Of a stretch of 64,000 nucleotides of DNA, positions 8,976 through 27,460 are shown in pieces. Numbering within the stretch: the stretch's first letter is position 1; every line of letters begins with the position of its first letter. The stretch lies in assembly GCF_013315695.1 (NCBI RefSeq), contig NZ_CP054356.1. The stretch is one strand, 5' to 3'. Under the pieces are notes generated by a model. The model was not told the DNA's origin. It ran no database searches and saw nothing but the letters and a program-made list of their open reading frames with translations. Made by a program: the position numbers and the translations under genes. This DNA is from Escherichia coli. GTDB taxonomy: Bacteria > Pseudomonadota > Gammaproteobacteria > Enterobacterales > Enterobacteriaceae.

Positions 8976-8980
8976 ACAAA

Positions 8981-9312: not shown

Positions 9313-10239
9313 ATGCCAAACTGGTGCTCGAATCGTATGTATTTTTCTGGTGAACCGGCACAGATCGCTGAGATTAAACGACTGGCCAGCGGTGCAGTCA
9401 CACCGTTTTATCGCCGCGCCACAAATGAAGGTATTCAGCTGTTTCTGGCCGGAAGTGCCGGACTTCTGCAGACCACTGAAGATGTGCGGTTTGAACCATG
9501 CCCCGGACTGACGGCTGCCGGACGTGGTGTTTTATCGCCGGAGAATATCACGTTCACCCGCTGGCTGAAGCACCTGCAGGACGGTGTACTGCTGGATGAG
9601 CAAAACTGCCTGATGCTGCATGAACTCTGGCTGCAGAGCGGTACTGGACAGCGTCGCTGGGAAGGGTTACCGGATGATGTCAGGGAAACTATCACTGTGC
9701 ATTTCACCGCAAAAAGAGGTGACTGGTGTGACATCTGGGGTAACGAGGATGTATCGGTGTGGTGGAACCGTCTGTGTGACAACGTACTGCCGGAAAAAAC
9801 CATGCCGTTTGACCTGCTGACGGTTTTGCCGACCCGCCTGGATATTGAAGTGAATGGCTTTAACGGCGGTGTTCTGAACGGTGTTCCTTCTGCATATCAC
9901 TGGTATACAGAACGGTATGGCGTGAAGTGGCCTTGTGGGTATGACCTGAATATCAGCAGTCAGGGGGAAAACTTCATTCAGGTAGATTTCGACACGCCGT
10001 GGTGTCAGCCGGAAAGCGACGTTGTTGCAGAATTAAGCCGCCGTTTCGGCTGCACGCTGGAGCACTGGTACGCCGAACAGGGCTGCAATTTCTGTGGCTG
10101 GCAGTTGTATGAGCGCGGAGAGCTTGTTGATGTGCTGTGGGGGGAACTGGAATGGTCTTCCCCGACAGATGACGATGAGCTGCCGGAAGTCACCGGACCT
10201 GCGTGGATAGTCGACAATGTGGCGCATTATGGCGGATGA
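9313..10239 (+). CDS. Hypothetical Trp/Cys-rich leading-region protein (about 308 aa)
   Basis: ORF with SD AGGA upstream of ATG 9313 (track gives alternative GTG 9298); motifs PNWCSNRMYF, WCDIWGNEDVSVWWNRLCDN, GCNFCGWQL; no family recognised with confidence. Confidence 0.6.
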   Translation: MPNWCSNRMYFSGEPAQIAEIKRLASGAVTPFYRRATNEGIQLFLAGSAGLLQTTEDVRFEPCPGLTAAGRGVLSPENITFTRWLKHLQDGVLLDEQNCLMLHELWLQSGTGQRRWEGLPDDVRETITVHFTAKRGDWCDIWGNEDVSVWWNRLCDNVLPEKTMPFDLLTVLPTRLDIEVNGFNGGVLNGVPSAYHWYTERYGVKWPCGYDLNISSQGENFIQVDFDTPWCQPESDVVAELSRRFGCTLEHWYAEQGCNFCGWQLYERGELVDVLWGELEWSSPTDDDELPEVTGPAWIVDNVAHYGG

Positions 10240-10287
10240 AGTATGACGGAGACGGGCGGGCAACCGCCCGTTTCTTTTCCGGTAAAG

Positions 10288-10598
10288 GATGTCGCCGTGC
10301 TCCTCTTTTTACTGCGCCGGCTGACGCGGCGCGGCATAAACGCTGCCTGTGGTCAGTGTCCCGCGTCCGGTGGGCACGGGACGGGCGCTTTTACCGCTCC
10401 CGGCTGGCGTCGGTGACAGTGTACGCCAGCCTGTCGCCCTTTTCTGATGAACGCCCTTCAAGCCGCTTTCGCGGCATAGCCTTGCCGTCAGAAAGACGAC
10501 GGCTGCGGTATTCCACGGTCGGCCTGACCCGTTACCGGACGCGGTGAACAGCCCACAGGCAGCGGGGAACGGGCACCACAGGGGTGCCCTCCCGGTGC
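10288..10598 (+). repeat. Leading-region structured repeat, family A copy 2 (Frpo/ssi-like)
   Basis: Near-identical to 8981-9290; ends just before RBS of methyltransferase gene. Confidence 0.6.
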
Positions 10599-10622
10599 CC
10601 TCTGTAAGAGAAGGAGTTTTGT

Positions 10623-11306
10623 ATGTCCCGTTTTGTCCTCGGTAACTGCATCGATGTTATGGCCCGTATTCCTGATAACGCCATTGATTTCATACTGACT
10701 GACCCGCCGTACCTCGTCGGTTTCCGTGACCGTTCCGGGCGCACCATTGCCGGTGATGTTAATGATGACTGGCTGCAACCTGCCAGCAATGAGATGTACC
10801 GCGTACTCAAAAAAGACGCGCTGATGGTCAGCTTCTACGGCTGGAACCGTGTCGATCGCTTTATGGCCGCCTGGAAACGCGCCGGATTCAGCGTGGCAGG
10901 GCACCTCGTGTTCACCAAAAACTACACATCCAAATCTGCGTATGTCGCGTACCGTCACGAATGCGCTTACATCCTGGCAAAGGGCAGTCCGGCCCGGCCC
11001 CGTAACCCTCTGCCGGATGTGCTGGGCTGGAAATATTCAGGCAATCGTCATCACCCGACGGAAAAGCCCGTTACCAGCCTGCAACCACTGATTGAGAGCT
11101 TCACACATCCGAACGCGATTGTGCTGGACCCGTTTGCAGGCAGCGGCTCAACCTGCGTCGCTGCCCTCCAGTCCGGACGCCGGTATATCGGTATCGAGCT
11201 GCTTGAACAGTATCACCGTGCCGGACAGCAACGACTGGCCGCCGTGCAACGGGCCATGCAGCAGGGGGCCGCGAATGATAACTGGTTTGAACCGGAGGCT
11301 GCGTAA
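10623..11306 (+). CDS. Orphan DNA methyltransferase (N6-adenine/N4-cytosine type, beta-class)
   Basis: Motif IV TDPPY precedes motif I DPFAGSGST; 227 aa; typical leading-region orphan MTase. Confidence 0.85.
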   Translation: MSRFVLGNCIDVMARIPDNAIDFILTDPPYLVGFRDRSGRTIAGDVNDDWLQPASNEMYRVLKKDALMVSFYGWNRVDRFMAAWKRAGFSVAGHLVFTKNYTSKSAYVAYRHECAYILAKGSPARPRNPLPDVLGWKYSGNRHHPTEKPVTSLQPLIESFTHPNAIVLDPFAGSGSTCVAALQSGRRYIGIELLEQYHRAGQQRLAAVQRAMQQGAANDNWFEPEAA

Positions 11307-11528
11307 ATGAACTATGCCGGACACGAAAAACTTCGCGCCGACGTGGCGGAGGTGGCCAACACCATGTGTGACCTTCGGGCCAGGCTGAACGATATGGAGC
11401 ATCGCTGTCGCTTTGATTCCGATGTGCTTGTTGAACGCCTGACACGCCAGACGCTGTATCGCGCCAATCGCCTGTTCATGGAGGCGTATACCGAAATTCT
11501 GGAACTGGATTCCTGCTTCAAAGATTGA
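11307..11528 (+). CDS. Hypothetical small protein (73 aa)
   Basis: ATG overlaps methyltransferase stop (TAAATG); operon context only. Confidence 0.5.
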   Translation: MNYAGHEKLRADVAEVANTMCDLRARLNDMEHRCRFDSDVLVERLTRQTLYRANRLFMEAYTEILELDSCFKD

Positions 11529-11541
11529 GAAGGAGACGAGA

Positions 11542-11976
11542 ATGTACGGAACATGCGAAACGCTATGCCGGGAGCTGGCAGCAAAGTATTCGGGAGACAC
11601 GCCACTGATGCTGGTTATCTGGTCCCCGGAAGAAATTCAGGCCCTCTCTGACGGAATGGATATTGCCCTGACCGATCATGAAATCAGGACTGTCCTGGCG
11701 CGCCTGGAGGACATCCCGGAAGACCAGCGGACTGAATCCGGTATTTCTTCCGGCGTGGCGATGGAGATCATCAATAACGTGAGCGAAAACCGCCAGGTGA
11801 CTGTCCCTGCTGAACTGCTGGCGTCCCTGATTCAGACCGCTGAACAGGCATTGTGGAAACGTGAATGGGCCGCCCGGGATCATGGCCTCGCCGTCCCGGA
11901 ATGCGTCACCCGCCGTCAGGCGGTGGTTAATCAGGTCCGCATCCTGCTGAAAAACAACACACACGAAAACGACTGA
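11542..11976 (+). CDS. Hypothetical leading-region protein, paralog of 13679-14098 (possibly DUF1380-type)
   Basis: Good RBS GAGAAGGAG; shares MY(G/C)T start and R-x-VTVPA-x-LL motif with ORF 13679. Confidence 0.6.
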   Translation: MYGTCETLCRELAAKYSGDTPLMLVIWSPEEIQALSDGMDIALTDHEIRTVLARLEDIPEDQRTESGISSGVAMEIINNVSENRQVTVPAELLASLIQTAEQALWKREWAARDHGLAVPECVTRRQAVVNQVRILLKNNTHEND

Positions 11977-12020
11977 TGTTATCGCCGCCTCCGGGCGGCG
12001 ATACAGGGAGTTCATGAATT

Positions 12021-12791
12021 ATGAATGAAATGCTGAATGCACTGATTTATCGCCACGCCAGCAACCTGTTGCTGGCGCAGGGCTGGCCGGAAGAGACGGA
12101 TGTTGACCAGCGTAACCCGAAGTATCCGGGCTGGATCAGCATTTACGTGCGGCTGGATGCGCCCCGGCTGGCGACGTTACTTATCAAGCGTCACGGCGGC
12201 GTACTGCCGCCGCTCCTGGCCTCTGCCATTCAGAAACTGACCGGAACCGGAGCGGAACTTGTTCTGTCCGGCAGTCAGTGGCAGTCGCTGCCGGTACTTC
12301 CGGCAGACGGAACGCAGGTGTCTTTCCCGTATGCCGGTGAGTGGCTGGCAGAGGACGAAATCAGGGCCGTTCTTGGTGCGGTACGCGATGCAGTATGCAG
12401 TGTCAGTTACCAGGTGGCAGAAGATGCGCGGCGTATCCGTGCGGCGCTGACCACCACCGGTCAGACGTTGCTGACCCGCCAGACGCGCCGCTTTCGCCTG
12501 GTGGTGAAGGAAAGCGATCACCCCTGCTGGCTCGATGAAGACGACGAAAACCTGCCCGTGGTGCTCGATGCCATCCTGAACCGGGGCGCTCGTTTTTCGT
12601 CGGTGGAAATGTATCTGGTCAGTGAGTGTGTGGAGCATATCCTGTCCAGTGGGCTGGCCTGCGATATGCTGCGTATACCGGATGAACCGCCCCGCCGCTG
12701 GTTTGACCGTGGTGTTCTGCGGGAGGTGGTCCGGGAAGCCCGGAACGAAATCCGCAGCATGGCGGATGCCCTGGCAAAAATCCGGAAATGA
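12021..12791 (+). CDS. Hypothetical protein (256 aa)
   Basis: RBS AGGGAG 10 nt upstream; codon usage consistent with neighbours; no family recognised. Confidence 0.55.
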
Positions 12792-12847
12792 TGACGCTGG
12801 CGGGGAAAAATCTCCGCCTTTTCCAGTCGGTCCCCGGAAAGAGCAAA

Positions 12848-13200
12848 AGGATGTCGCCGCAGGCTCCTCTTTACCCGGCCATGTGGGGCATGGCCTTGTG
12901 GGTTTTCAGTTATGTGGCCTCAGCGTCGTGTGCGGGCTGTGCCGTGCCTCCATCGTAGCCGGGCTTCTGCGGGCGGGTTGCAAGGTAAGGTGAACCGCTG
13001 CGGTCACCCGGTCCCTCCTTCCCGTCTGCCGTGATTTTCCGGTCGTTCACCCGCTCAGATTTCGCGGTCTCACCCTTCAACTCCCGTCAGCCGTGCGCGT
13101 CAGGCTGCGGCTTCCCTTGCGCCCTTGCAACCCTGCAGGCCCGGCAAAGATGGAGGCACGGCACCGCCCGGTGTCGCGGAATATGTGAACAACGGAGGAA
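12848..13200 (+). repeat. Divergent family-A-related structured element upstream of klcA
   Basis: Begins with the same AAGGATGTCGCCG..GCTCCTCTTT motif as family A copies, then diverges; GC-rich with inverted repeats. Confidence 0.45.
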
Positions 13201-13206
13201 AACATC

Positions 13207-13632
13207 ATGCAATATGCGAAACCTGTCACTCTGAACGTTGAAGAGTGTGACCGTCTCTCCTTTCTGCCTTACCTGTTTGGCAACGATTTTCTGTATGCCG
13301 AGGCGTATGTGTACGCGCTGGCGCAAAAAATGATGCCGGAATATCAGGGAGGCTTCTGGCATTTCATCCGCCTGCCGGACGGTGGCGGTTACATGATGCC
13401 GGATGGCGACCGTTTTCATCTGGTCAACGGTGAAAACTGGTTTGACCGCACTGTGAGTGCTGATGCCGCAGGTATCATCCTGACTTCCCTTGTGATTAAC
13501 CGCCAGTTGTGGCTGTACCACGACAGCGGGGATGCGGGACTGACACACCTTTACCGGATGCGCGATGCGCAGTTGTGGAGCCACATCGAATTTCACCCCG
13601 AATGCAATGCGATTTACGCGGCACTTGACTGA
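13207..13632 (+). CDS. klcA: Antirestriction protein KlcA/ArdB family
   Basis: 141 aa; size, leading-region position and motifs ([21 protein letters not shown]) consistent with recalled KlcA/ArdB. Confidence 0.65.
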
Positions 13633-13678
13633 TTAACGGACGGGGCGGCGATGCCGCCCCTGTAAAGGAGACGAGAAC

Positions 13679-14098
13679 ATGTACTGTACTGTTAAAGAAA
13701 TTATCCGCGAAGTGCTGGATACAGACGTGCCGGACAGTGAATGCGTTTTTGCCGTGGTGCTGACCCGTGGGGATGTGCGTCACATAGCCCAGGACTGGAG
13801 TCTGACAGACGATGAGCTGGAAACCGTCATGCAGCGGCTGGACGATGCCTTTGAGCATGGTGCTGATGTCAGCATTGTTCACGACGTTGTTCGTGAACTG
13901 ATGGAGGAAAAGCGCGTAAACCGTCTTGTAACAGTCCCTGCGGTGCTGCTGGAAAAAGTGATGGTGATGGCTGGTAGTGAAATTTATCGCCTCCATGCTG
14001 TAGGGAGCGAGAACGGGGGCGACGGTGACGCATTTGTCAGGGAAGAACGTGAGATTATGCGGGTGATGCGTCAGGCGCTGGACGGGGAGAATGGGTAA
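13679..14098 (+). CDS. Hypothetical leading-region protein, paralog of 11542-11976
   Basis: RBS AAAGGAGA; shared motifs with ORF 11542 (VTVPAVLLEKV). Confidence 0.6.
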   Translation: MYCTVKEIIREVLDTDVPDSECVFAVVLTRGDVRHIAQDWSLTDDELETVMQRLDDAFEHGADVSIVHDVVRELMEEKRVNRLVTVPAVLLEKVMVMAGSEIYRLHAVGSENGGDGDAFVREEREIMRVMRQALDGENG

Positions 14099-14289
14099 TG
14101 AATATCAGCAAGGAAACCCGCGAAATTCTGCGTAATTACAGGGCCGTGATTAATGCGCGGCGTCGTGAAATGGGGCAGAAACCGCTCACCACCGCGCAGA
14201 TTGTTGATGAAATATGTGATTTTGTGGTGAATCAGCAGGCTGTTTTCCTCGGTGGTCACTACATCCTTCAGGGCAGCAGGCACAGGTGA
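14098..14289 (+). CDS. Hypothetical small protein (63 aa)
   Basis: ATG overlaps previous stop (TAATG); operon context. Confidence 0.45.
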   Translation: MNISKETREILRNYRAVINARRREMGQKPLTTAQIVDEICDFVVNQQAVFLGGHYILQGSRHR

Positions 14290-14490
14290 TACAGGGCAGG
14301 CGGTGGAGGCCGCCTGTCAGCCCGCGCGAAAACCCCTGGCAGGCTGGCGCCTGCCGGAAGGGAAGCGGGCCACGCTGGCGCGTCGCCCGTTACCCTTCCC
14401 GTTTGTGATGTGTCCGGAATGTTTTTTCCTGATGTTATGTTTCTGTGGTTACTGTTCTTCTTCTTCCTCTTCTTTCCGTTCCTCTCCTGT

Positions 14491-15025
14491 TTATGCCTTT
14501 TCCGGGCGTCCCCCTGGCGGGGCGGGCTGTCGTGAACGGAGCCAGCGGAGCTGTCTCCGCCCTGGCGGGCTTCCATCCCTGACGCAAAACCCCGGGTTTG
14601 CAGCGACCGGAACGGTCGCGCCACCCCTGTCGCGCCGTGGCCTGCGCTCCCGGCATCCCGGCAAAAAGACGCCGGGATGTAAGGAGCAACGCCGTTTCGC
14701 AAACCGCGCTTCACGTCGTTGCAGCGGGTCCCTGCTCATTGCCTGCCGGGTGCCACACACCCGTATGAGTCCCTGTCGCCGGGGGCATAGACAGCCACAA
14801 CCTGCCGCACTGACTGTCCAGGGTAAATGAACAGCCCACAAAATTTTTTACCTAAAACCCGGTAAAAAATTTTGCGTTCTGCCCAGGACAGGTGCGTCAG
14901 GCCGTGGCAGTGATGCCCCTTGCGGCGAAGGTTCTCAAACGGGTGAAGTTCATACCACAGGGAATACAGCAGCAGGTTCCCGCGAAACGTCAAAACCGCG
15001 GCTCCCGAAACTCAACGGGTGATGT
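14491..15025 (+). repeat. Leading-region structured repeat, family B copy 1 (Frpo/ssi-like candidate ssDNA promoter)
   Basis: About 530 bp repeated at 17774-18300 and 23191-23740; contains perfect 14-bp inverted repeat CAAAATTTTTTACC/GGTAAAAAATTTTG (about 14839-14874). Confidence 0.6.
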
Positions 15026-15256
15026 TCTTTAAAAATCAGGATTTATTTCAGGCTCCGGCAATACGCATTTATGTGTTCTGTCAGTCATCCGGCTGGCAGG
15101 TAATGAAAACGCAGGAACAGAAGGAGGAAAACACCGGAAAGCGTCAGATGCAGATATGAAAAAAAGCAGGTCAGGGACCTGCTTAATCCACGCCGTAAGA
15201 ATTGTGCGACCAATTTTGACGGCATTGTTAACCAATTTGTCATAAGGAATCCATTT

Positions 15257-15487
15257 ATGACTGTAAGCATTGTTTCACCTTCCGCAGCGGCTGTAAAGCC
15301 CCGCCGTCATCCCCGTTTCAGACGCGAAGACATCCCCGCGCCGGAACTTGACCCCGTGCTGAAAGCCTTCGGGCGACACATTGCCCGGAGTTTTCGCCGG
15401 GGGCGTGGTGTACACATCCCCGCCATGAAAAACACGGCCTTCGGGCAGGTGCTCCGCACACTCGAACTGAAACGCGCTTTTAACTGA
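15257..15487 (+). CDS. Hypothetical small basic protein (76 aa, Arg-rich)
   Basis: RBS AAGGAA; first gene after family B copy 1; RRHPRFRRED..RSFRRGRG. Confidence 0.5.
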   Translation: MTVSIVSPSAAAVKPRRHPRFRREDIPAPELDPVLKAFGRHIARSFRRGRGVHIPAMKNTAFGQVLRTLELKRAFN

Positions 15488-15538
15488 TGAGGTGAGCCGC
15501 CCCGCGAGGGGCGGCAACAGACGGAAGGAGAACATTTT

Positions 15539-16900
15539 ATGACATTAGCAGCAATCACCATGACCGCCCCGGAAGCCGCCAGCCCTGTGCAGATGTACCG
15601 CGCGACCTACTCACCGGATGACAACAAACTGCGCCTGTATGCCGTGTCACGTCTTGACCCGGAGACGTATAAAAAAGTGCATGATGCCGGTTTTCGCTGG
15701 GCACCAGAACAGGCGCTGTTTGTGGCTCCAGCCTGGACACCGGGCCGGGAAGACGTGCTCCTCTCACTTGCCGGAGAGATTGAGGATGAAGACAGCACGC
15801 TCGCTGAACGTCAGGAAGCACGGGCGGAGCGGTTTACCGGATACAGCGGAAAGCGGGCCAGTGAATCCGCACAGGCACTTGATGAAGTGGAAAGACTGGC
15901 CGCGATGATCCCGCCCGGTCAGCCCATTCTTGTGGGGCATCACAGCGAACGCCGCGCCCGTCGTGATGCGCAGCGTATTGAAAACGGCATGAAACGTGCC
16001 GTGATGCTCTTTGAACGTGCGGAATACTGGGAAGAACGTGCGCGGTCGGCACTGCTTCACGCGAAGTATAAAGAACGTCCGGACGTTCGCTGGCGTCGTA
16101 TCAAAAAAATCGAAGCTGATTTGCGCAAGGCTGAAAAGACCATCGCACAGTCGCAGAAATATCTGACGATGTGGCGGGCTGAATCGCTGGATCTGAATAT
16201 GGCAAAACTCATCAGCAGTCATGACCATATCAGCGCCTGTTTCCCGCTGGATACGTATCCGCGCCCGGCAGAAAAAAGCCAGTATGAAGGAAGTCGATCG
16301 TTATGGTCGGCCCTGGATGATGACATCATCACCACGGAGCAGGCCCGCGAAATTGCGATCCGCTGTCATGAACGGCAGATTCAGCATCAGCAACGCTGGG
16401 TTAACCACTATCAGAACCGCCTGATCTATGAGCGTGCCATGCTGGACGAAAGCGGCGGCGTGGTTACCCGGACACAGGATTTTGAGCCGGGCGGACAGGT
16501 TTTCAGCCGGGGCGAGTGGCTGACCATCATCCGCGTGAACAAAAGCAACGGGGCGGTGAGTTCAGTCACAACGCCGAATTACAGTTTTCTCGGGTACAGC
16601 GGCACGATGAAAGTGACGCCCGATCGCATCACGGACTACAAAGCACCATCGGCAGAAGAGGCTGCCGTCGCCAGCCAGGCCGCGAAGCGTCCGCCGGTAG
16701 TCAACTATCCGGGGGAAGGTTTCCGGGAAATGACAAAGGCGCAGTGGGCCGCCCTGCCCCGGGACTGTAAGGCCGTGCGCAGTGTGGCAGAGACAGAAGA
16801 CCACGGGGCATACCGCTACCGCCGCACAATGGACAATAATTTCCGCCTGGTGAATGTGTATATCACCGACATGAAAATCACGGAAATCCCGCAGAAATAA
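15539..16900 (+). CDS. Hypothetical leading-region protein (453 aa)
   Basis: Strong RBS GAAGGAGA; long ORF with Arg/Glu-rich helical central region; no family assigned with confidence. Confidence 0.65.
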   Translation: MTLAAITMTAPEAASPVQMYRATYSPDDNKLRLYAVSRLDPETYKKVHDAGFRWAPEQALFVAPAWTPGREDVLLSLAGEIEDEDSTLAERQEARAERFTGYSGKRASESAQALDEVERLAAMIPPGQPILVGHHSERRARRDAQRIENGMKRAVMLFERAEYWEERARSALLHAKYKERPDVRWRRIKKIEADLRKAEKTIAQSQKYLTMWRAESLDLNMAKLISSHDHISACFPLDTYPRPAEKSQYEGSRSLWSALDDDIITTEQAREIAIRCHERQIQHQQRWVNHYQNRLIYERAMLDESGGVVTRTQDFEPGGQVFSRGEWLTIIRVNKSNGAVSSVTTPNYSFLGYSGTMKVTPDRITDYKAPSAEEAAVASQAAKRPPVVNYPGEGFREMTKAQWAALPRDCKAVRSVAETEDHGAYRYRRTMDNNFRLVNVYITDMKITEIPQK

Positions 16901-16946
16901 GGTATATCCCCCCGGGAAATCCCCGGGGGATGACGGAGATAATGAT

Positions 16947-17510
16947 ATGCACAGTCAGTTAAAAGAACGTATCCGGCTGATGCGCGCAAGGCTGGATAAC
17001 GCCGCGCCGGTTGCTGAAATCCGGGCTGAATCTCAGCTTTTTGTGACTCCTGCCCCGGTCTGTGATCGCCTGGTGACGCTGGCGGAGATCAGCAACCGTG
17101 ATCACATTCTGGAACCCTCTGCCGGCACCGGGGCCATACTGCGGGCGATTCGTCATGTCGCGCCGGGGGCCATGTGTGATGCGGTGGAGATTAACAGCGG
17201 GCTGGTCCGGTATCTGCGGGATAATTTTAACGGTGTCAGGGTTCAGTGTGGCGACTTCATGGAATGGCAGCCGGTGCAGTATTACAGCCGGATTATCATG
17301 AATCCGCCGTTCAGTCACGGGCAGGATATCCGGCATATCCTGCGGGCTTTTTCCCTGTTGCGTCCGGGTGGTGTGCTGGTTGCCGTCTGTCTGAACGGGC
17401 CGCGCCAGCAGGAGAAGCTGTTACCGTTTTCTGATGTCCGCGAGGTGCTGCCGTGCGGCACATTTGCTTATACCCGTGTTCCGACGATGATTATTCGTCT
17501 GCGTGCCTGA
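16947..17510 (+). CDS. Small orphan SAM-dependent DNA methyltransferase (N6-adenine type)
   Basis: Motif I EPSAGTGA and motif IV NPPF; 187 aa; RBS GGAG. Confidence 0.7.
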   Translation: MHSQLKERIRLMRARLDNAAPVAEIRAESQLFVTPAPVCDRLVTLAEISNRDHILEPSAGTGAILRAIRHVAPGAMCDAVEINSGLVRYLRDNFNGVRVQCGDFMEWQPVQYYSRIIMNPPFSHGQDIRHILRAFSLLRPGGVLVAVCLNGPRQQEKLLPFSDVREVLPCGTFAYTRVPTMIIRLRA

Positions 17511-17687
17511 TGACTCCGGGCAGGCGGGAGGATAAATGCCCGTCTGCCCGCGCCGGGAAAAGACCGCGCGCCGGTGGCGCTGAAAGGGGCCGCGCTTACG
17601 CGCCGCCCCTTTCATTACGCGGACGTTCTGCTGTGGGCTTCTGTCTTTTCAGACCTGTCATTTGCCTGTTACTGATGATGTTGTTGT

Positions 17688-17722
17688 TCCTGCTACTGCT
17701 ACTGCTACTGCTACTGCTACTG
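17688..17722. repeat. Tandem hexanucleotide repeat (TGCTAC)n, about 5 units
   Basis: CTGCTACTGCTACTGCTACTGCTACTGCTACTG in pyrimidine-rich tract preceding family B copy 2. Confidence 0.8.
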
Positions 17723-17773
17723 TTCTTCTTTTTTCTGCTGCTCTGATTACTGTCTGTTTTGTTGTTCTCCTGC

Positions 17774-18300
17774 TTATGCCTTTTCCGGGCGTCCCCCTGG
17801 CGGGGCGGGCTGTCGTGAACGGAGCCAGCGGAGCTGTCTCCGCCCTGGCGGGCTTCCATCCCTGACGCAAAAACCCGGGTTTGCAGCGACCGGAACGGTC
17901 GCGCCACCCTTGTCGCGCCGTGGCCTGCGCTCCCGGCATCCCGGCAAAAGACGCCGGGATGTAAGGAGCAACGCTGTTTCGCAAACCGCGCTTCACGTCG
18001 TTGCGGCGGGTCCCTGCCCGTTGTTCTGTCCGGTGCCATTCACCTGTTTAAGCCCCTGTCGCCGGGGGCTGATACAGCCACAACCTGCCGCACTGACTGT
18101 CCAGGGTAAATGAACAGCCCACAAAATTTTTTACCCAAAACCCGGTAAAAAATTTTGCGTTCTGCCCAGGACAGGTGCGTCAGGCCGTGGCAGTGATGCC
18201 CCATGCGGCGAAGGTTCTCAAACAGGTGATGGTGAATACCGGAGGGAACAAAAGGCAGGTCCCCGCAAAACGTCAAAACCGCGGCTCCCGAAACTCAACA
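17774..18300 (+). repeat. Leading-region structured repeat, family B copy 2 (Frpo/ssi-like), upstream of ssb
   Basis: Near-identical to 14491-15025 and 23191-23740. Confidence 0.6.
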
Positions 18301-18340
18301 GATGATGGGGGCTGAAAACATCAACAGAAGGAGACACATC

Positions 18341-18868
18341 ATGGCAGTTCGTGGCATTAACAAGGTCATTCTTGTCGGTCGTCTGGGAAAAGATCCGGAA
18401 GTCCGTTACATCCCCAACGGGGGCGCAGTGGCAAACCTGCAGGTGGCCACGTCAGAAACCTGGCGCGACAAACAGACGGGGGAAATGAAGGAGCAGACGG
18501 AATGGCACCGCGTGGTGCTGTTCGGCAAGCTCGCGGAAGTGGCAGGTGAATATCTGCGTAAGGGGGCGCAGGTCTACATTGAAGGCCAGCTTCGCACCCG
18601 TAGCTGGGAAGATAACGGTATTACCCGTTACGTCACCGAAATCCTTGTTAAAACCACGGGCACCATGCAGATGCTGGGGAGTGCACCACAGCAGAACGCT
18701 CAGGTGCAACCGCAGCCTCAGCAGAATGGTCAGTCACAGAGTGCTGACGCGACGAAAAAAGGGAGCGCGAAAACGAAAGGCCGTGGACGTAAGGCTGCGC
18801 AGCCGGAGCCTCAGCCGCAACCACCGGAGGGGGAGGATTACGGGTTTTCAGACGATATCCCGTTCTGA
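18341..18868 (+). CDS. ssb: Plasmid single-stranded DNA-binding protein SSB
   Basis: [23 protein letters not shown].. OB-fold N-terminus and acidic C-terminal tail DDIPF; track ORF extended to upstream ATG 18302. Confidence 0.95.
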
Positions 18869-18886
18869 CTGGCCTGACTGTGATAA

Positions 18887-19159
<273 letters not shown>

Positions 19160-19219
19160 GAGAGGTGCCGGACGGGGATCACGTCCGGCAGACATTAACT
19201 ACACAATAAGGGGATAGTC

Positions 19220-21184
19220 ATGTCAGTAACAAAGTCTGAACCAAAATCTACCCGTAAAGCAAGCCGTAAACCTGCAAAAACGCAGGAAACTGTCCTGTCT
19301 GCCCTGCTGGCGCAGACGGAGGAAGTGAGCGTGCCGCTGGCCTCGCTGATTAAGTCACCACTGAATGTGCGCACGGTGCCGTATTCTGCGGAGTCCGTCA
19401 GCGAACTGGCTGATTCCATTAAGGGGGTCGGCCTGCTGCAGAATCTGGTTGTTCATGCCCTGCCAGGTGACCGCCACGGTGTCGCCGCAGGTGGTCGCCG
19501 ACTGGCAGCACTCAACATGCTGGCAGAGCGTGGCATCATTCCGGCTGACTGGCCTGTCCGCGTGAAAATTATTCCGCAGGAACTGGCGACGGCCGCATCG
19601 ATGACCGAGAACGGTCATCGTCGGGATATGCACCCAGCCGAACAGATTGCCGGATTCTGTGCAATGGCGCAGGAAGGCAAAACACCTGCACAAATCGGTG
19701 ATTTGCTGGGCTATTCACCCCGCCACGTTCAGCGAATGCTGAAACTGGCTGACCTTGCGCCTGTCATCCTCGATGCGCTGGCAGAAGACCTCATCACCAC
19801 CGAGCACTGTCAGGCGCTGGCGCTGGAGAACGACACCGCGCGTCAGGTGCAGGTGTTTGAAGCCGCCTGTCAGTCGGGATGGGGCGGTAAACCGGAAGTA
19901 CAGACCATTCGTCGTCTGGTGACCGAAAGTGAAGTGGCGGTGGCAGGGAACAGTAAATTCCGCTTCGTGGGGGCTGATGCCTTCTCGCCAGATGAACTGC
20001 GCACTGACCTGTTCAGCGACGACGAGGGTGGCTATGTGGACTGCGTGGCGCTCGATGCCGCCCTGCTGGAAAAACTCCAGGCTGTTGCTGAACACCTTCG
20101 GGAAGCCGAAGGCTGGGGATGGTGCGCCGGACGCATGGAGCCTGTCGGTGAGTGCCGTGAGGATGCCGGAACATACCGCTGTCTGCCGGAGCCGGAAGCG
20201 GTGCTGACGGAGGCGGAAGAAGAACGTCTGAACGAACTGATGACGCGTTACGACGCGCTGGAAAACCAGTGTGAGGAATCTGACCTGCTGGAAGCAGAAA
20301 TGAAGCTGATGCGCTGCATGGCGAAGGTCAGGGCGTGGACGCCGGAGATGCGTGCCGGAAGCGGTGTGGTGGTGTCCTGGCGTTATGGCAACGTGTGTGT
20401 CCAGCGTGGTGTGCAGTTGCGCAGCGAGGATGATGCGGCTGACGACGCTGACCGCACGGAACAGGTGCAGGAGAAAGCGCCCGTGGAGGAAATCAGTCTG
20501 CCACTGCTGACGAAAATGTCTTCCGAACGCACGCTGGCAGTCCAGGCAGCACTGATGCAGCAACCGGACAAATCCCTGGCACTGCTGGCATGGACGCTCT
20601 GCCTGAATGTGTTTGGCAGCGGAGCGTACAGTAAACCAGCACAAATCAGCCTGGAATGTAAACATTATTCGCTGACCAGCGATGCGCCATCGGGGAAGGA
20701 CGGTGCCGCATTCCTGGCGCTGATGGCAGAAAAAGCCCGTCTTGCAGCCCTGTTACCGGAGGGATGGTCACGGGATATGACGACGTTCCTGTCACTCAGC
20801 CAGGAGGTACTGTTATCCCTGCTCAGTTTCTGCACCGCGTGCAGCATCCACGGCGTTCAGACCCGCGAGCATGGTCACACGTCACGCAGTCCGCTGGACT
20901 CGCTGGAGAGCGCTATCGGATTCCACATGCGCGACTGGTGGCAGCCGACGAAAGCAAACTTCTTCGGACACCTGCAAAAGCCGCAGATTATCGATGCCCT
21001 GAATGATGCCGGACTGTCCGGTGCTGCGCGGGACGCGGAGAAAATGAAGAAAGGCGATGCCGCTGAACATGCAGAGTTCCACATGAAAGACAACCGCTGG
21101 GTGCCTGGCTGGATGTGTACACCACGTCCACAGGCAGAGACGGAAACCACGGAGTACCGTGACGACCAGGCAGAAGCCGCCTGA
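19220..21184 (+). CDS. ParB-like nuclease domain protein (leading-region ParB/Srx homolog)
   Basis: 654 aa; N-terminal ParB-type region (..GLLQNLVVH.. GGRRLAALN..); conserved position between ssb and psiB. Confidence 0.7.
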
Positions 21185-21252
21185 CCGCCAGTCATAAACC
21201 ATTTATCACGCCGCCCTGCCGGAGACGGGGCGGCAGCAAGGGAGATACCGTG

Positions 21253-21687
21253 ATGAAAACTGAACTGACCCTGAATGTATTACAGACCATGAGCGCACAG
21301 GAATATGAAGATATCCGGGCTGCCGGAAGTGATGAACGTCGTGAACTCACACATGCCGTGATGCGGGAGCTGGATGCGCCGGATAACTGGACGATGAACG
21401 GCGAGTATGGCAGCGAGTTCGGCGGCTTTTTCCCCGTCCAGGTCCGTTTCACGCCTGCCCACGAACGTTTTCACCTGGCGTTATGTTCACCGGGCGATGT
21501 CTCTCAGGTCTGGGTGCTGGTTCTGGTGAATGCCGGTGGTGAGCCGTTTGCGGTGGTTCAGGTACAGCGGCGGTTTGCACCGGAAGCCGTCAGCCATTCA
21601 CTGGCACTGGCGGCGTCACTGGACGCGCAGGGGTACAGCGTCAGTGACATCATCCATATCCTGATGGCGGAAGGAGGTCAGGCATGA
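21253..21687 (+). CDS. psiB: Plasmid SOS inhibition protein PsiB
   Basis: [40 protein letters not shown].. matches recalled PsiB; ATG at 21253 (track starts at GTG 21250). Confidence 0.95.
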
Positions 21688-22403
21688 GCGCACGTTCACA
21701 GGCACTGGTTCCCCTCAGCGCAGAGCAACAGGCCGCATGGCGGGCGGTGGCGGAGACAGAAAAACGCCGCCACCAGGGAAACACGCTGGCGGAATATCCG
21801 TATGCGGGGGCGTTTTTCCGCTGTCTGAACGGAAGCCGCAGGATATCGCTGTCTGACCTGCGATTTTTCATGCCGTCCCTGACCGCAGAAGAACTGCGCG
21901 GCAACCGTTCTCAGTGGCTGTATGCCGTCGATGTGCTGATTGAAACTCAGGGCGAGGTCTGCCTTCTTCCCCTTCCCGGCGATGCAGCAGAGCGGCTGTT
22001 CCCGTCGGTGCGGTTCCGTGTCAGGGAGCGCAGTCGCCACAAATCCGCACTGGTCATGCAAAAGTACAGCCGCCAGCAGGCGAGGGAGGCAGAGCAGAAA
22101 GCCCGTGCGTACCAGGCGCTGGTCGCTCAGGCTGAAATCGAACTGGCATTCCATTCGCCGGAAACAGTCGGAAGCTGGCATGCCCGCTGGAGTGACCGGG
22201 TGGCAGAGCATGACCTGGAAACCCTGTTCTGGCAGTGGGGTGAGCGTTTTCCGTCACTGGCCGGAATGGAACGCTGGCAGTGGCAGGATATGCCGTTCTG
22301 GCAGGTTATTGCGGAAGCCAGTCTTGCAGCAAGAGAGGCCGGTCACGCTGTCCGTGAGATGGAGCGGTGGATGGTGCCGAACAAACTCCGGGAGGCGGCG
22401 TGA
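21684..22403 (+). CDS. psiA: Plasmid SOS inhibition protein PsiA
   Basis: 239 aa immediately downstream of and overlapping psiB stop. Confidence 0.85.
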
Positions 22404-22559
22404 TGCGGCAACAATCGCACAGATTACCCGTAAACAGCCTGAATGAGCGGGTTATTTTCAGGAAAAGTGAGTGTGGTCAGCGTGCAGGTATATGGGCTAT
22501 GATGTGCCCGGCGCTTGAGGCTTTCTGCCTCATGACGTGAAGGTGGTTTGTTACCGTGT

Positions 22560-22640
22560 TGTGTGGCAGAAAGAAGATAGCCCCGTAGTAAGTTAATTTT
22601 CATTAACCACCACGAGGCATCCCTATGTCTAGTCCACATC
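22560..22640 (-). ncRNA. Putative sok/flmB-type antisense RNA (approximate)
   Basis: Inferred from hok/mok architecture: antisense to mok leader; boundaries not determined. Confidence 0.3.
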
Positions 22641-22837
22641 AGGATAGCCTCTTACCGCGCTTTGCGCAAGGAGAAGAAGGCCATGAAACTACCACGAAGT
22701 TCCCTTGTCTGGTGTGTGTTGATCGTGTGTCTCACACTGTTGATATTCACTTATCTGACACGAAAATCGCTGTGCGAGATTCGTTACAGAGACGGACACA
22801 GGGAGGTGGCGGCTTTCATGGCTTACGAATCCGGTAA
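22625..22837 (+). CDS. mok: mok-like modulator-of-killing reading frame overlapping hok
   Basis: 70-aa ORF overlapping the hok frame, as in hok/sok and flm loci. Confidence 0.6.
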
Positions 22838-22841
22838 GTAG
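22683..22841 (+). CDS. hok: Hok/Gef-family membrane toxin (FlmA/Hok-like), 52 aa; below ORF-track size cut-off
   Basis: Translation [52 protein letters not shown] matches recalled Hok; TAG stop at 22839-22841. Confidence 0.92.
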
Positions 22842-22850
22842 CAACCTGGA

Positions 22851-22872
22851 GGCGGGCGCAGGCCCGCCTTTT
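22851..22872 (+). terminator. Rho-independent terminator of hok mRNA
   Basis: GGCGGGCGCAGGCCCGCC hairpin followed by TTTT. Confidence 0.7.
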
Positions 22873-23190
22873 CAGGGCTGATGCTGGTCTGACTGCACTG
22901 AAGCGCCTTTATAAAGGGGCTGCTGGTTCGCCGGTGGCCCCTTTCTCCTTGCTGGCATTGTACGGGCATGAACAACCAGACTGCCAGGAAGGCCGTTTCC
23001 CTCCGGGAACGGGGATGAACGTGCGCCTGCGGCGCCCGTTCTTTTCCCCCGCCTTCTCTGTTTATGACTTACCAGAAATCACATCACCTTCCCTTTGATT
23101 ATTCTCTTTTTCCTCCTGCTCTGACTCTGATTACTGCTCTGACTCTGATTACTGCTGCCCTGATTATTGTCTGTTTTGTTGTTCTCCTGC

Positions 23191-23740
23191 TTATGCCTTT
23201 TCCGGGCGTCCCCCTGGCGGGGCGGGCTGTCGTGAACGGAGCCAGCGAAGCTGTCTCCGCCCTGGCGGGCTTCCATCCCTGACGCAAAACCCCCGGCTTG
23301 CAGCGACTGTTCCGGTCGCGCCGCCTCTGTCGCGCCGTGGCCTGCGCTCCTGGCATCCCGGCAAAAGGCCGCCGGGATGTAAGGCGCAACGCCGTTTCGC
23401 AAACCGCGCTTCACGTCGTTGCGGCGGGTCCCTGCCCGTTGTTGTGTCCGGTGCCATTCACCTGTTTAAGCCCTGTCGCCGGGGCTGATAGTTGATACAA
23501 CCTGCCGCACTGACTGTCCGGTAAAATGAACAGCCCACAAAATTTTTTACCCAAAACCCGGTAAAAATTTTGCGTTCTGCTCCAGACAGGTGCGTCAGGC
23601 CGTGGCAGGTGATGCCCCTGCGGCGAAGGTTCTCAAACAGGTGATGGTGAATACCGGAGGAACAAAAGGCAGGTCCCCGCAAAACGTCAAAACCGCGGCT
23701 CCCGAAACTCAACAGATGATGGGGGCTGAAAACATCAGAT
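23191..23740 (+). repeat. Leading-region structured repeat, family B copy 3 (Frpo/ssi-like)
   Basis: Near-identical to copies 1 and 2; 3' end shares the ssb leader sequence up to about 10 nt before the RBS. Confidence 0.6.
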
Positions 23741-23752
23741 ACAGGAGGAATT

Positions 23753-24049
23753 ATGAGCGCATTTTCTTTTAACACCACTTATCAGCCAACAGGCGATCAG
23801 CAGAAAGACGCAATCGCACAAATCGGGATCATGCAGAATCGTGCTGTTCAGGCAAATCTTGCATATCAGAGCTGCCGGGATTCTGGTGCACTCTTTAAGG
23901 TGCTCCACCAGGTCAATAATGAGCTGCATGACTTACTGGATAGCCTGGAGAATCATACTCCTCTTGTCAGAAAAAACGCTGATGAGTTGATCGCGCTGTT
24001 ACTGCTTTTCACTCGGCAGGTTGGTCAGTCCCGAACTGACCTGATTTGA
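23753..24049 (+). CDS. Hypothetical protein (98 aa)
   Basis: RBS AGGAGG; first gene after family B copy 3. Confidence 0.5.
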   Translation: MSAFSFNTTYQPTGDQQKDAIAQIGIMQNRAVQANLAYQSCRDSGALFKVLHQVNNELHDLLDSLENHTPLVRKNADELIALLLLFTRQVGQSRTDLI

Positions 24050-24159
24050 TGGTCCTTCCCCTCGGAATTGTTGTCTTTTTGTTAACGATAACCGAGGGGG
24101 GATGATATTAAGCGAAAAAACTTTTATTAATTTTATGCCTTCATAAAGGAGTTACTGTT

Positions 24160-24981
24160 ATGCGATTAGCTTCCCGTTTTGGTCGATATAATTCTATTCG
24201 CCGTGAGCGCCCGTTAACGGATGACGAATTAATGCAGTTTGTTCCATCTGTCTTTTCTGGTGATAAACATGAATCCCGGAGTGAGCGTTATACATATATC
24301 CCAACCATCAATATCATCAATAAGTTACGTGATGAAGGTTTCCAGCCATTCTTTGCCTGTCAGAGTCGGGTTCGTGATTTGGGACGCCGCGAATACAGTA
24401 AACATATGTTACGTCTTCGCAGGGAAGGGCATATTAACGGGAAAGAAGTTCCTGAAATTATCCTGCTTAATTCACATGATGGTTCATCCAGTTATCAGAT
24501 GATCCCAGGAATTTTTCGTTTTGTCTGCACAAATGGCCTGGTGTGTGGGAATAATTTTGGCGAAATCCGCGTTCCACATAAAGGTGATATTGTCGGGCAG
24601 GTTATTGAGGGAGCGTATGAAGTGCTCGGTGTCTTTGATAAAGTCACTGAAAATATGGAGACAATGAAAGAGATACATCTTAACAGTGACGAACAACATT
24701 TATTTGGCAGAGCTGCATTGATGGCCAGGTACGAAGATGAAAATAAAACGCCAGTGACGCCAGAACAAATAATTACTCCCCGCCGTTGGGAGGATAAACA
24801 GAACGATCTCTGGACAACCTGGCAGCGGGTTCAGGAGAATATGATAAAAGGTGGATTATCGGGGCGAAGTGCCTCCGGTAAAAATACCAGAACAAGAGCC
24901 ATTACAGGCATTGACGGTGATATCCGAATCAACAAAGCATTATGGATGATTGCCGAACAGTTCAGGGAGTGGAAGTCATGA
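24160..24981 (+). CDS. Conserved leading-region protein (DUF932-like)
   Basis: 273 aa; conserved position next to orf169/oriT in F-like plasmids; family name from memory only. Confidence 0.5.
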   Translation: MRLASRFGRYNSIRRERPLTDDELMQFVPSVFSGDKHESRSERYTYIPTINIINKLRDEGFQPFFACQSRVRDLGRREYSKHMLRLRREGHINGKEVPEIILLNSHDGSSSYQMIPGIFRFVCTNGLVCGNNFGEIRVPHKGDIVGQVIEGAYEVLGVFDKVTENMETMKEIHLNSDEQHLFGRAALMARYEDENKTPVTPEQIITPRRWEDKQNDLWTTWQRVQENMIKGGLSGRSASGKNTRTRAITGIDGDIRINKALWMIAEQFREWKS

Positions 24982-25030
24982 TAATATAAGTAAAGCCCCG
25001 AAAAATTTTTCGGGGCTTTACTTATATTAT
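24981..25030. terminator. Perfect 50-bp palindrome (bidirectional terminator candidate) between convergent genes
   Basis: ATAATATAAGTAAAGCCCCGAAAAA / TTTTTCGGGGCTTTACTTATATTAT. Confidence 0.65.
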
Positions 25031-25277
25031 CATCCTGCGGCATTGCTGTGTCGTCTGATATGCCTCAATTTCATCAACTGGCTTTTCGGTAGTCTGTAAA
25101 TATTGTGCCCGCGAAAAATGGTCTGGCAGGAGGCTGCACAGTTACCGGATATATATAAGATGGGATCCCGCTTTGCGGGGCTTCGGCCAGTCAGCATTAT
25201 CACTCATATGATATTTTTGTGTGTGGCCTTCCATGCCGCTGTCGCGGCATAACCGGTATTTGACAATGTATACAATA

Positions 25278-25787
25278 TTAATTTTTCTGCACACTGTTAA
25301 TTTGGGAAAGTGATTTCTTCGTGGTCGGAACCCGGATGCCTTTACTGCTCTTTATCCAGGTATAAATCCGGTAAACCTCTGATGCGTAGGCAAGACGTCT
25401 CTGGTTCTGGCGTTCGGTCTTCCTGAATCCGGCATTGTATGCACCAACGGCCTCCCAGGAGACGCCCCATTTTTTAAAGGCTATTGCCAGATAATAAGCA
25501 CCGGTATAAATGTTCATGCAGGGATCTGTTGTCAGATGTTCCGGCTTAATTCCATAGCGGGCCAGTTCGTTAAAATGCTGGGAATCTACCTGCATCAGTC
25601 CGCTGCCATATCCCGTTACCGGATTAATACCGATGGCATTAACCCGGTAACGGGATTCTTTCCATGATATCGCTCTCAGTAAATCCGGGTCTATTTTGTA
25701 ATCCCGACCTGCAAGATCAAAGCAATCGGCGGCTTCGCAGATCCCATTTATAAACATCAGGCAGATTGCTAACATCCATTTTTTCAT
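25278..25787 (-). CDS. Lytic transglycosylase (F orf169/gene X-like)
   Basis: 169 aa with signal peptide and transglycosylase motifs (..ISWKESRY.. GLMQV.. AYNAG..); transcribed away from oriT. Confidence 0.85.
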
Positions 25788-25789
25788 TT

Positions 25790-26195
25790 TTCCACCTCTG
25801 GTGACTTTATCCGTAAATAATTTAACCTACTCCACAAAAAGGCTCAACAGGTTGGTGGTTCTCACCACCAAAAGCACCACACCCCACGCAAAAACAATTT
25901 TTTGCTGATTTTTCTTTATAAATAGAGTGTTATGAAAAATTAGTTTCTCTTACTCTCTTTATGATATTTAAAAAAGCGGTGTCGGCGCGGCTACAACAAC
26001 GCGCCGACACCGCTTTGTAGGGGTGGTACTGACTATTTTTATAAAAAACATCATTTTATATTAGGGGCGCTGCTAGCGGCGCGGTGTGTTTTTTTATAGG
26101 ATACCGCTAGGGGCGCTGCTAGCGGTGCGTCCCTGTTTGTATTATGAATTTTAGTGTTCCGAAATTAACTTTATTTTATGTTCAAAAAAGGTAAT
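25790..26195 (-). other. oriT: Origin of transfer oriT (F/R100-type); nic predicted on minus strand near 25878/25879
   Basis: Plus strand carries reverse complement of the F nic region (..CCAAAAGCACC|ACACCCCACGC..), adjacent inverted repeat GGTGGTTCTCACCACC, A/T-rich tracts, hairpin GCGGTGTCGGCGCG..CGCGCCGACACCGC, repeated AGGGGCGCTGCTAGCGG motifs (TraM-site candidates). Confidence 0.8.
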
Positions 26196-26200
26196 CTCTA

Positions 26201-26584
26201 ATGGCTAAGGTGAACCTGTATATCAGCAATGATGCCTATGAAAAAATAAATTCGATTATTGAGAAGCGTCGACAGGAAGGGGCAAGGGAAAAAGATGTCA
26301 GTTTTTCAGCAACAGCTTCAATGCTTCTTGAACTGGGGCTTCGTGTATATGAGGCTCAGATGGAGCGTAAAGAGTCTGCATTTAATCAGACTGAGTTTAA
26401 TAAATTGCTTCTTGAATGCGTTGTAAAAACACAATCATCAGTAGCGAAAATTTTGGGTATTGAGTCTCTCAGTCCTCATGTCTCCGGAAATCCAAAGTTT
26501 GAATATGCCAATATGGTTGAAGATATCAGGGAGAAGGTATCATCTGAGATGGAACGATTTTTTCCAAAAAATGATGATGAATAA
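26201..26584 (+). CDS. traM: Relaxosome protein TraM
   Basis: 127 aa MAKVNLYISNDAYEKINSIIEKRRQEGAREKDVSFSATASMLLELGL.. matches TraM. Confidence 0.95.
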   Translation: MAKVNLYISNDAYEKINSIIEKRRQEGAREKDVSFSATASMLLELGLRVYEAQMERKESAFNQTEFNKLLLECVVKTQSSVAKILGIESLSPHVSGNPKFEYANMVEDIREKVSSEMERFFPKNDDE

Positions 26585-26692
26585 AAGAAATTTGACTTCG
26601 TTCAAATATCAGAGTTTTTATGATTTAAAAAGGTGACAGTACGAAAGATAATTAGTATATTAATTACGTGGTTAATGCCACGTTAAAATTTG

Positions 26693-26775
26693 AATTTGAA
26701 AATCGCCGATGCAGGGAGTTCTCTCCTCCCCGCATCGACTGTCCATAGAATCCTTTGTGAGGAGGTTCCTATGTA
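26693..26775 (-). ncRNA. finP: FinP antisense RNA (approximate)
   Basis: Antisense to traJ leader/RBS; two stem-loops (e.g. CGATGCAGGGAG..CTCCCCGCATCG) and minus-strand U-tail (plus GAATTTGAAAATC). Confidence 0.6.
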
Positions 26776-27460
26776 TCCGATGGATCGTATTCAACAAAAA
26801 CATGCTCGTCAAATAGATCTGCTGGAAAATCTGACGGCAGTTATTCAGGATTATCCAAATCCAGCCTGTATCAGGGACGAAACTGGAAAATTTATTTTTT
26901 GCAATACGCTGTTTCATGAGTCATTTCTTACACAAGATCAAAGTGCTGAAAAATGGCTTCTGTCGCAGAGAGATTTTTATGAATTGATCTCTGTCACAGA
27001 GATGGAAGCATACAGGAATGAGCATACGCATCTTAATCTTGTAGAGGATGTTTTTATTCAGAACAGATTCTGGACAATATCTGTCCAGTCATTTCTTAAT
27101 GGACACAGAAATATTATTCTGTGGCAATTTTATGATGCTGCTCATGTTCGTCATAAAGACAGTTATAATCAAAAAACGATTGTCAGTGATGATATCAGAA
27201 ATATAATCAGAAGAATGAGTGATGATTCTTCTGTATCATCATATGTAAATGATGTATTTTACTTATATAGCACCGGAATCAGTCATAATGCTATAGCAAG
27301 AATATTAAACATATCCATCTCCACATCAAAGAAACACGCATCTCTGATATGCGACTACTTCTCTGTTTCTAATAAAGATGAGTTAATCATCTTACTCTAC
27401 AATAAAAAGTTTATTCATTATTTATACGAGAAGGCTATGTGTATCATAAATATGCGTTAA
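26771..27460 (+). CDS. traJ: Transfer operon activator TraJ
   Basis: ATG with RBS GAGGAGG; MYPMDRIQQKHARQIDLLENL..; track ORF extends upstream to 26690. Confidence 0.85.
   Translation: MYPMDRIQQKHARQIDLLENLTAVIQDYPNPACIRDETGKFIFCNTLFHESFLTQDQSAEKWLLSQRDFYELISVTEMEAYRNEHTHLNLVEDVFIQNRFWTISVQSFLNGHRNIILWQFYDAAHVRHKDSYNQKTIVSDDIRNIIRRMSDDSSVSSYVNDVFYLYSTGISHNAIARILNISISTSKKHASLICDYFSVSNKDELIILLYNKKFIHYLYEKAMCIINMR

Follow-up and report, generated by a model that had tools for sequence, protein, structure and literature searches.

Pyrimidine-rich, length-variable tracts at the upstream border of Frpo-type promoter modules in the leading region of an IncF plasmid: probable neutral spacers that include a known typing locus

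Three pyrimidine-rich simple-sequence tracts were analysed in a 64,000-nucleotide (nt) stretch of an Escherichia coli IncF plasmid (contig NZ_CP054356.1; the whole stretch is called the window), each of which stands before one of the three copies of a long repeat, family B. The tracts are non-coding and slippage-prone, and are probably neutral spacers that mark the upstream border of modules built around Frpo-type single-stranded-DNA (ssDNA) promoters. The core of this observation is already known in the form of an established variable-number tandem repeat (VNTR) used for typing, as the second tract is locus O157-37, or VNTR-37, of the multiple-locus VNTR analysis (MLVA) of E. coli O157. A modest new point is that VNTR-37 and STTR10pl, a typing locus of the Salmonella Typhimurium plasmid pSLT, occupy one structural position, beside the ssDNA promoter of the plasmid ssb operon.

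The family B copies are located at 14443-15040, 17726-18323 and 23143-23737. The preliminary description of this DNA had stated that a pyrimidine-rich tract precedes each copy, and all three tracts were indeed present directly upstream, with small corrections of their coordinates. Tract 1, upstream of B1, covers 14425..14490 as delimited by Tandem Repeats Finder (TRF) and composition; tract 2, upstream of B2, covers 17655..17775 on the evidence of TRF and the VNTR-37 primers; and tract 3, upstream of B3, covers 23085..23190 on the evidence of TRF and a one-copy/two-copy dimorphism among relatives (all on the + strand). The core of tract 1 is a degenerate (TTC/CTC)n array (14455-14477, +), for which TRF reported 6.7 copies of TTC at 14455-14474 with 88% matches, and which coincides with TTCTTCTTCTTCCTCTTCTTTCC, a run of 23 pyrimidines; no other homopyrimidine run in the window reaches 18 nt. 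The core of tract 2 is (TGCTAC)5 (17691-17720, +), reported as 5.5 copies of CTGCTA at 17690-17722 with 100% matches, and the core of tract 3 consists of 2.3 copies of the 18-mer CTGCTCTGACTCTGATTA (23116-23156, +), also with 100% matches. The three most pyrimidine-rich 60-nt segments of the + strand in the entire 64 kb are the three tracts, with peak pyrimidine fractions of 0.80-0.87 compared with a mean of 0.48 (standard deviation 0.08), a bias far beyond chance; the tracts as a whole are 73-80% pyrimidine.

On the + strand, the order of the module is a GC-rich terminator-like hairpin, the tract (66-121 nt), a conserved GC-rich block that together with its small hairpins occupies ~190 nt, the ~330-nt promoter stem-loop, and then the 5' untranslated region (UTR) and the genes. 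Directly before tract 1, a hairpin of the first type closes the upstream gene block (14360..14400, +); it was recognized by sequence, alignment and folding, is predicted to be paired in the folds, and aligns in part with its B2 and B3 equivalents. The hairpin gaaaggggccgcgcttacgcgccgcccctttc (17583..17614, +), found by the same three means, lies between the methyltransferase gene and tract 2. Before tract 3, a GC-rich hairpin followed by TTTT (23017..23045, +) resembles an intrinsic terminator, with a terminator-like match whose stem lies at 23023-23035 and whose tail is CCGTTCTTTT. The tracts themselves are partly homologous, as those of B2 and B3 share ~45 nt (ctgattactgtctgttttgttgttctcctgcttatgcc) and that of B1 shares the last ~15 nt, and they therefore represent the variable 5' part of one repeated module and not three independent events. 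Overall they can be described as degenerate (NYT)n DNA, with T in 85% of the positions of one phase in tract 2, which accounts for perfect repeats with periods of 3, 6 and 18 nt.

The family B elements are copies of the class-1 ssDNA promoter repeat (Frpo/ssi/ssp1), as indicated by a stem-loop of ~330 nt on the transferred strand, by 89-94% identity to the copies in plasmid F, and by gene context and orientation. The geometry of transfer is established for F, and because the leading genes of the window are all on the + strand with oriT near 25800-26200, the transferred (T) strand is the minus strand of the window. On this strand the stem-loop of B1 (~14678-15011) gave an ssDNA fold of -163 kcal/mol (z = -8.5). 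The B1 body (14492..15040, +) is made up of the conserved GC-rich a-block (14492-14586), small hairpins and the Frpo-type stem-loop; it lies upstream of a 76-amino-acid open reading frame (ORF), a DUF3560 gene and a methyltransferase gene, and represents a third copy whose DUF3560/methyltransferase block is without counterpart in F. The B2 body (17775..18323, +), upstream of ssb (18341-18868), is the homologue of F Frpo2/ssp1b and shares 93.7% identity with the F copy that precedes ssb (8081-8601 in the comparison stretch L014). The B3 body (23192..23737, +), which precedes a ygeA-like gene (23753-24049) and a DUF932/ygeB-like gene (24160-24981), is by homology and gene context the homologue of F Frpo1/ssp1a and shares 89% identity with the F copy that precedes ygeA/ygeB. 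Frpo2 was defined, and Frpo1 placed upstream of ygeA/ygeB, in an earlier study (PMC9849209), and the start of transcription from ssDNA, with reconstituted -35/-10 elements and a mapped +1, was shown for F and pESBL (PMC9849209, PMC12672017). No Rfam family was matched in the tracts or the B bodies; the only matches were the traJ 5' UTR, FinP, sok and AS-pc01. The last of these (antisense to pHK01_035; 15161-15262, minus strand), which scored 79.4 bits where the gathering score is 79, is situated a short way downstream of B1 and takes in the start, at 15257, of the 76-amino-acid ORF.

Each tract is separated from its stem-loop by ~190 nt, and in the work of Masai and Arai the element sufficient in vitro was reportedly a fragment of 328 nt; the tract therefore flanks the promoter and is not part of the defined promoter. 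In this respect the modules differ from Frpo/ssi/ssp1 as described (Masai & Arai 1997; Couturier et al. 2023; Wen et al. 2025), with which the B elements share their positions and the long stem-loop.

A second repeat family (A) is located upstream of other leading-region genes, including an antirestriction gene at 13207, and its copies (8978-9293, 10284-10598 and ~12845-13190) are probably ssp2-like promoters of the class-2 type. No pyrimidine tract was found in front of the copies at 10284 and ~12845, which rules out the tract as a general feature of ssDNA promoters. Before the copy at 8978, GT-rich repeats of 11-12 nt (TGGTGTTTTTTT, TGGGTTGTGTT; 8817-8969) stand beside the start of a parM-like gene. 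We take these repeats to be, probably, iterons of a parC-type centromere; on the minus strand they, too, belong to the least structured segments.

The identity of tract 2 with VNTR-37 was established from the primer pair of the PulseNet MLVA scheme for E. coli O157 (PMC8461963). In plasmid pO157 of strain Sakai the two primers match exactly on both sides of (TGCTAC)7 and delimit an amplicon of 184 bp. In the window the forward primer site (17602..17628, +) has two mismatches and the reverse primer site (17737..17773, minus strand) matches exactly, giving a predicted amplicon of 172 bp (17602-17773), which falls inside the published range of 157-274 bp. The locus described in the literature (Keys et al. 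2005; PulseNet) is thus the same, with a 6-bp unit, hypervariability and a measured mutation rate, tabulated as 8.5e-5 (PMC3777172); the window differs from Sakai in that the plasmid here is not pO157 and carries five copies and not seven. The primer of VNTR-36, the pO157 locus Vhec7, was absent from the window. An association of VNTR-37 with an adjoining ssDNA promoter was not mentioned in the papers searched, and a literature search by the repeat sequence itself found nothing.

A comparable array, (CCTGTT)10.2, is present in pSLT at the homologous position, upstream of the Frpo homologue of ssbB, and lies between the STTR10pl primers (published coordinate pSLT 53711). Among 375 isolates, 20 alleles of STTR10pl were reported. 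This array shares with tract 2 its position before the Frpo-type element of the plasmid ssb gene, its perfect 6-nt pyrimidine-rich repeat and its strand, whereas the unit is CCTGTT and not TGCTAC, and the pSLT element is 76% identical to B2. The difference between the two units indicates that the STTR10pl array arose independently, and the occurrence of two hexamers at one site, together with the TTC array and the 18-mer in other copies, indicates that repeats arise recurrently at this spacer.

Variation among relatives was assessed in 17 annotated plasmid stretches and ~120 metagenome contigs (identified by L numbers), which together contained 172 B copies; a scan of contigs for a conserved 30-mer yielded four short contigs only, some of them apparently contaminated. 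The copy number of (TGCTAC)n ranged from 2 to 11 in the 38 B copies counted in plasmid records and metagenome contigs, and contigs with 1 and 12 copies were also seen. In 29 of 30 sampled full-length plasmid matches the length of tract 2 differed from that in the window by a multiple of 6 nt (-24 to +36). Tract 1 measured 75-117 nt among the relatives, mostly in 3-nt steps, and had one additional TTC in the 99.8%-identical plasmid L001. The 18-mer of tract 3 was found as one copy in 25 cases, including F, and as two copies in 21, and sampled plasmid matches likewise included a class shorter by 18 nt. The clearest comparison was that of plasmids from Shigella sonnei in Belgium (L007) and Klebsiella pneumoniae in India (L008), whose 8.5-kb flanks are 100% identical while n is 6 and 7, respectively; in L009, with a single nucleotide different from these flanks, n is 8. 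Arrays that differ between identical 8.5-kb flanks must mutate far faster than single bases. The tracts thus behave as microsatellites, being short head-to-tail repeats, perfect or near-perfect, that differ by whole units among close relatives with conserved flanks.

The preliminary description had suspected that the tracts are slippage-prone and had named conservation of their length and sequence across plasmids as the outcome that would speak against this. The comparison gave the opposite result, as neither length nor sequence is conserved, and the changes in multiples of the repeat unit, seen even between identical flanks and at an established VNTR locus, bear out the suspicion. The pattern of variation suggests that the mutations arise by slippage. 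Degenerate (NYT)n triplet DNA would give rise to perfect 3-, 6- and 18-nt repeats, and slipped-strand mispairing during DNA synthesis would then expand and contract them much more rapidly than point substitutions accumulate. It is this difference in rate that makes one of the tracts usable as an MLVA typing locus. Bacterial contingency loci likewise consist of perfect short tandem repeats whose copy number shifts rapidly by slippage. However, contingency repeats are located inside a coding frame or in the spacer of the -35 and -10 elements and switch expression, whereas the tracts are in neither position and, save for a few exceptions, change in steps of 3 or 6 nt in non-coding DNA. Since the tracts are intergenic, ~190 nt outside the promoter stem-loop and without coding constraint, they do not qualify as phase-variable contingency loci, and the observations together suggest that they have no length-dependent function.

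The tracts also coincide with a border of recombination. One tract type was found joined to two unrelated downstream blocks, type a in 112 of the 172 B copies and type b in 54. These alleles occupy the ~95-135 nt between tract and stem-loop, are both GC-rich, and are mosaically exchanged among copies and among plasmids. All three copies in the window carry type a (14492-14586, 17775-17869 and 23192-23286), and examples of type b are L007 4456-4589, L013 7772-7905 and L015 at 15760 and 22105; type b is ~95% conserved between IncF and IncI1, as estimated by eye from printed sequences. In addition, the ssb promoter copy of F is preceded by the type of tract that precedes B1 in the window, as would be expected if B1 and B2 had recombined and the DUF3560/methyltransferase block had thereby been lost. 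One B copy (L016, 18320) has a deletion of ~48 nt in the a-block between direct repeats CCCTGGCGGG, leaving a segment of 89 nt as against 137 nt; this deletion is a further product of slippage or recombination within the module.

Mobile elements were found at the same place in other plasmids. A group II intron of ~2.3 kb (ltrA, in the sense of the transferred strand; L009 2124-4453) occupies the exact boundary of tract and type-b block (ctgtctgccggg / cgcaccttcgg) in B copies of L009, L012 and six contigs, L025, L079, L109, L116 and L129 being among the contigs that carry it. In L049, L058, L078, L089 and L093 the tract is cut, at a position that differs among them, by unrelated DNA, either insertion sequence (IS) ends or other DNA, which suggests a hot spot for insertion. 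In four contigs an ORF tail ...LLPWN... is followed by ...gcttac(g/c) at the end of the joined DNA, and these ends are presumably those of an IS66-like element. The suggestion in the preliminary description that the tracts mark recombination junctions and module boundaries is supported by the joining of the tract to a or b blocks, by the exchanged tract of the F ssb copy, and by the intron and IS ends at or within the tract.

Taken as a neutral spacer, the tract would fill the interval between the terminator-like hairpin of the preceding gene block and the conserved body of the class-1 promoter module. Its length and most of its sequence would be unconstrained and its composition alone would persist, the pyrimidine richness of the sense strand corresponding on the transferred strand to a purine-rich, poorly paired linker just 3' of the promoter structure. 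At this left border of the module, recombination between copies and insertion of mobile elements reshuffle the leading region. Several observations weigh against complete neutrality. A few length variants do not correspond to the repeat unit (+20 nt in tract 1 and -21 nt in tract 2), and the strand composition persists where the tract sequence is different, as in the (CCTGTT)n array of pSLT, at a 71%-identical element in L052 and L056, and in the short T-rich tracts of the IncI1 plasmid R64. Persisting composition could reflect selection for a property of the tract. All copies descend from one ancestral module, and therefore this persistence is not independent evidence in either direction. The composition could represent an unpaired linker or landing pad or a U/C tract following a terminator, and could equally be a by-product of microsatellite dynamics.

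The likeliest of the rival readings is that of a selected single-stranded linker, serving either as a landing pad for SSB or for a 3'->5' helicase such as UvrD or Rep, or as an insulator of promoter folding; nevertheless, it appears unlikely. On the T strand the predicted probability of pairing is 0.24-0.31 in the tracts as against 0.62-0.72 in the flanks, and the tracts rank 1, 2, 4 and 7 among the least structured 60-nt segments of 8000-27000 in the predicted fold, so that the least structured parts of the T strand adjoin the most structured. The unpaired purine-rich stretch of 60-120 nt lies 3' of the promoter hairpins, a polarity that suits a 3'->5' helicase. Furthermore, passage of the class-2 promoter ssp2 requires UvrD (preprint 10.64898/2026.01.09.698686) and class-2-like copies in the window are without a tract, but this comparison is based on one published promoter. 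The copy number varies about tenfold with no apparent optimum, natural plasmids exist in which the 2.3-kb group II intron or IS ends separate the tract from the module, and the flank in L095 is GT-rich and not pyrimidine-rich, all of which argue against a landing pad.

With respect to insulation, deletion, inversion or randomisation of the tracts in silico changed the predicted native pairing of the module slightly and inconsistently. Randomisation lowered the predicted native-pair probability from 0.78 to 0.72 for tract 2 and from 0.82 to 0.76 for tract 3, but these effects are small and there was none for B1 (0.738 for the wild type and 0.761 with the tract deleted), and a role as folding insulator is doubtful. 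A broader proposal, which we consider quite unlikely, is that the tract is a selected loading zone for helicase or SSB 3' of every class-1 promoter, where repeated complementary-strand synthesis would breed microsatellites (TGCTAC, CCTGTT, TTC and the 18-mer). If true, it would help to explain why class-1 promoters are unreported as roadblocks to conversion while the tract-less class-2 ssp2 needs UvrD.

It is very doubtful that the tract is instead the U/C-rich tail of the terminator of the upstream operon, or a Rho-utilisation (rut) site, blocking read-through that would melt the next promoter hairpin. A GC-rich hairpin stands before each tract, and that of B3 has a terminator-like score; G is scarce on the sense strand, with C/G ratios of 1.3-2.1; and structured, pause-prone DNA follows each tract. 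However, the tracts are T-rich and not C-rich, and the (CTGCTA)n array is without YC dinucleotides (Y, pyrimidine), the preferred contact of Rho. YC density is high in tracts 1 and 3 only, and tract 2, at 9.9 per 100 nt, falls short of the average of the window (11.2). The composition fits a rut site only in part.

The chance that the tracts act by forming intramolecular triplexes (H-DNA) or as entry sites for primase (5'-CTG-3') on the retained strand is very slight. The preliminary description had proposed a check for H-DNA, and by inspection of the sequence such a structure is plausible for tract 1, with its homopyrimidine run of 23 nt (about 50 nt in F), but not for tracts 2 and 3, in which G or A interrupts about every third base and the longest runs are 14 and 16 nt; only tract 1 thus qualifies, and H-DNA was rejected for the tracts as a group. 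CTG is enriched 4-6-fold on the + strand of the tracts (4, 15 and 11 copies), and the transferred strand has none. Primase sites were nevertheless rejected, as this enrichment, although real, is accounted for by the repeat units, and donor replacement synthesis has no obvious need for priming here.

There is next to no likelihood that the tracts encode a variable hydrophobic N-terminal part of small proteins, read either in a + frame ending in ...MPFPGVPLAGRAVVNGASGAVSALAGFHP and a stop or in minus-strand ORFs of 110-148 amino acids: all repeat periods are multiples of 3, strong 3-nt periodicity runs through tract 2, ORFs are open in all three copies, and hypothetical proteins have been annotated on one strand or the other by PGAP and in older records, but among 60 distinct a-block variants substitutions fell 19/14/8 at codon positions 1/2/3, 33 being non-synonymous and 8 synonymous, with a nonsense change and the loss of a start codon, and variants with 1-nt insertions or deletions exist, as do the tract variants of +20 and -21 nt. 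No Shine-Dalgarno sequence was found before any candidate start and no Pfam match was above threshold, and pyrimidine-rich DNA translates to hydrophobic-looking sequence in any frame; coding across the tract was therefore rejected in the + frame and in the minus-strand ORFs, neither of which has the features expected of a small ORF. Because coding constraint is lacking, the hypothetical proteins annotated across tract 2 and the B body in the window (17596-18039, minus strand, and 17662-17865, + strand) look spurious, as do calls of the same kind in L002 (1597-2040), L011 (7597-8052), L013 (7663-7905) and L014 (7808-8164). Elsewhere in the window, a perfect 9-nt array of 10.9 copies of AACAGCCAC (53149-53246) is coding, as (QQP)n near the C-terminus of a 788-codon ORF (51159-53522) that is probably TraD.

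A query of 901 nt around tract 2 matched at least 5000 plasmid records, the best of them being the IncFIA/FIC plasmid pSCU-175-2 (99.8%), and the whole leading region (9000-25800; 16.8 kb) is also 99.8% identical to this plasmid. According to the annotation of pSCU-175-2, the gene order begins with antirestriction genes, DUF3560, a S-adenosylmethionine (SAM)-methyltransferase, ssb, DUF905 and a ParB-like gene, and continues with psiB, psiA, hok, the ygeA-like gene, DUF932, an SLT transglycosylase on the opposite strand, traM and traJ.

In conclusion, these results give an interpretation to two loci in use for typing, since VNTR-37 and STTR10pl both occupy the variable spacer that immediately precedes the Frpo-type promoter of the plasmid ssb operon. 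Their position accounts for null alleles when the plasmid is absent, for possible cross-reacting alleles in other IncF plasmids, and for the spurious "hypothetical" or "inner membrane" proteins reported by gene callers. The results also single out the border of each early-promoter module as a place where microsatellites arise recurrently, and where modules recombine and introns and IS elements insert as well.

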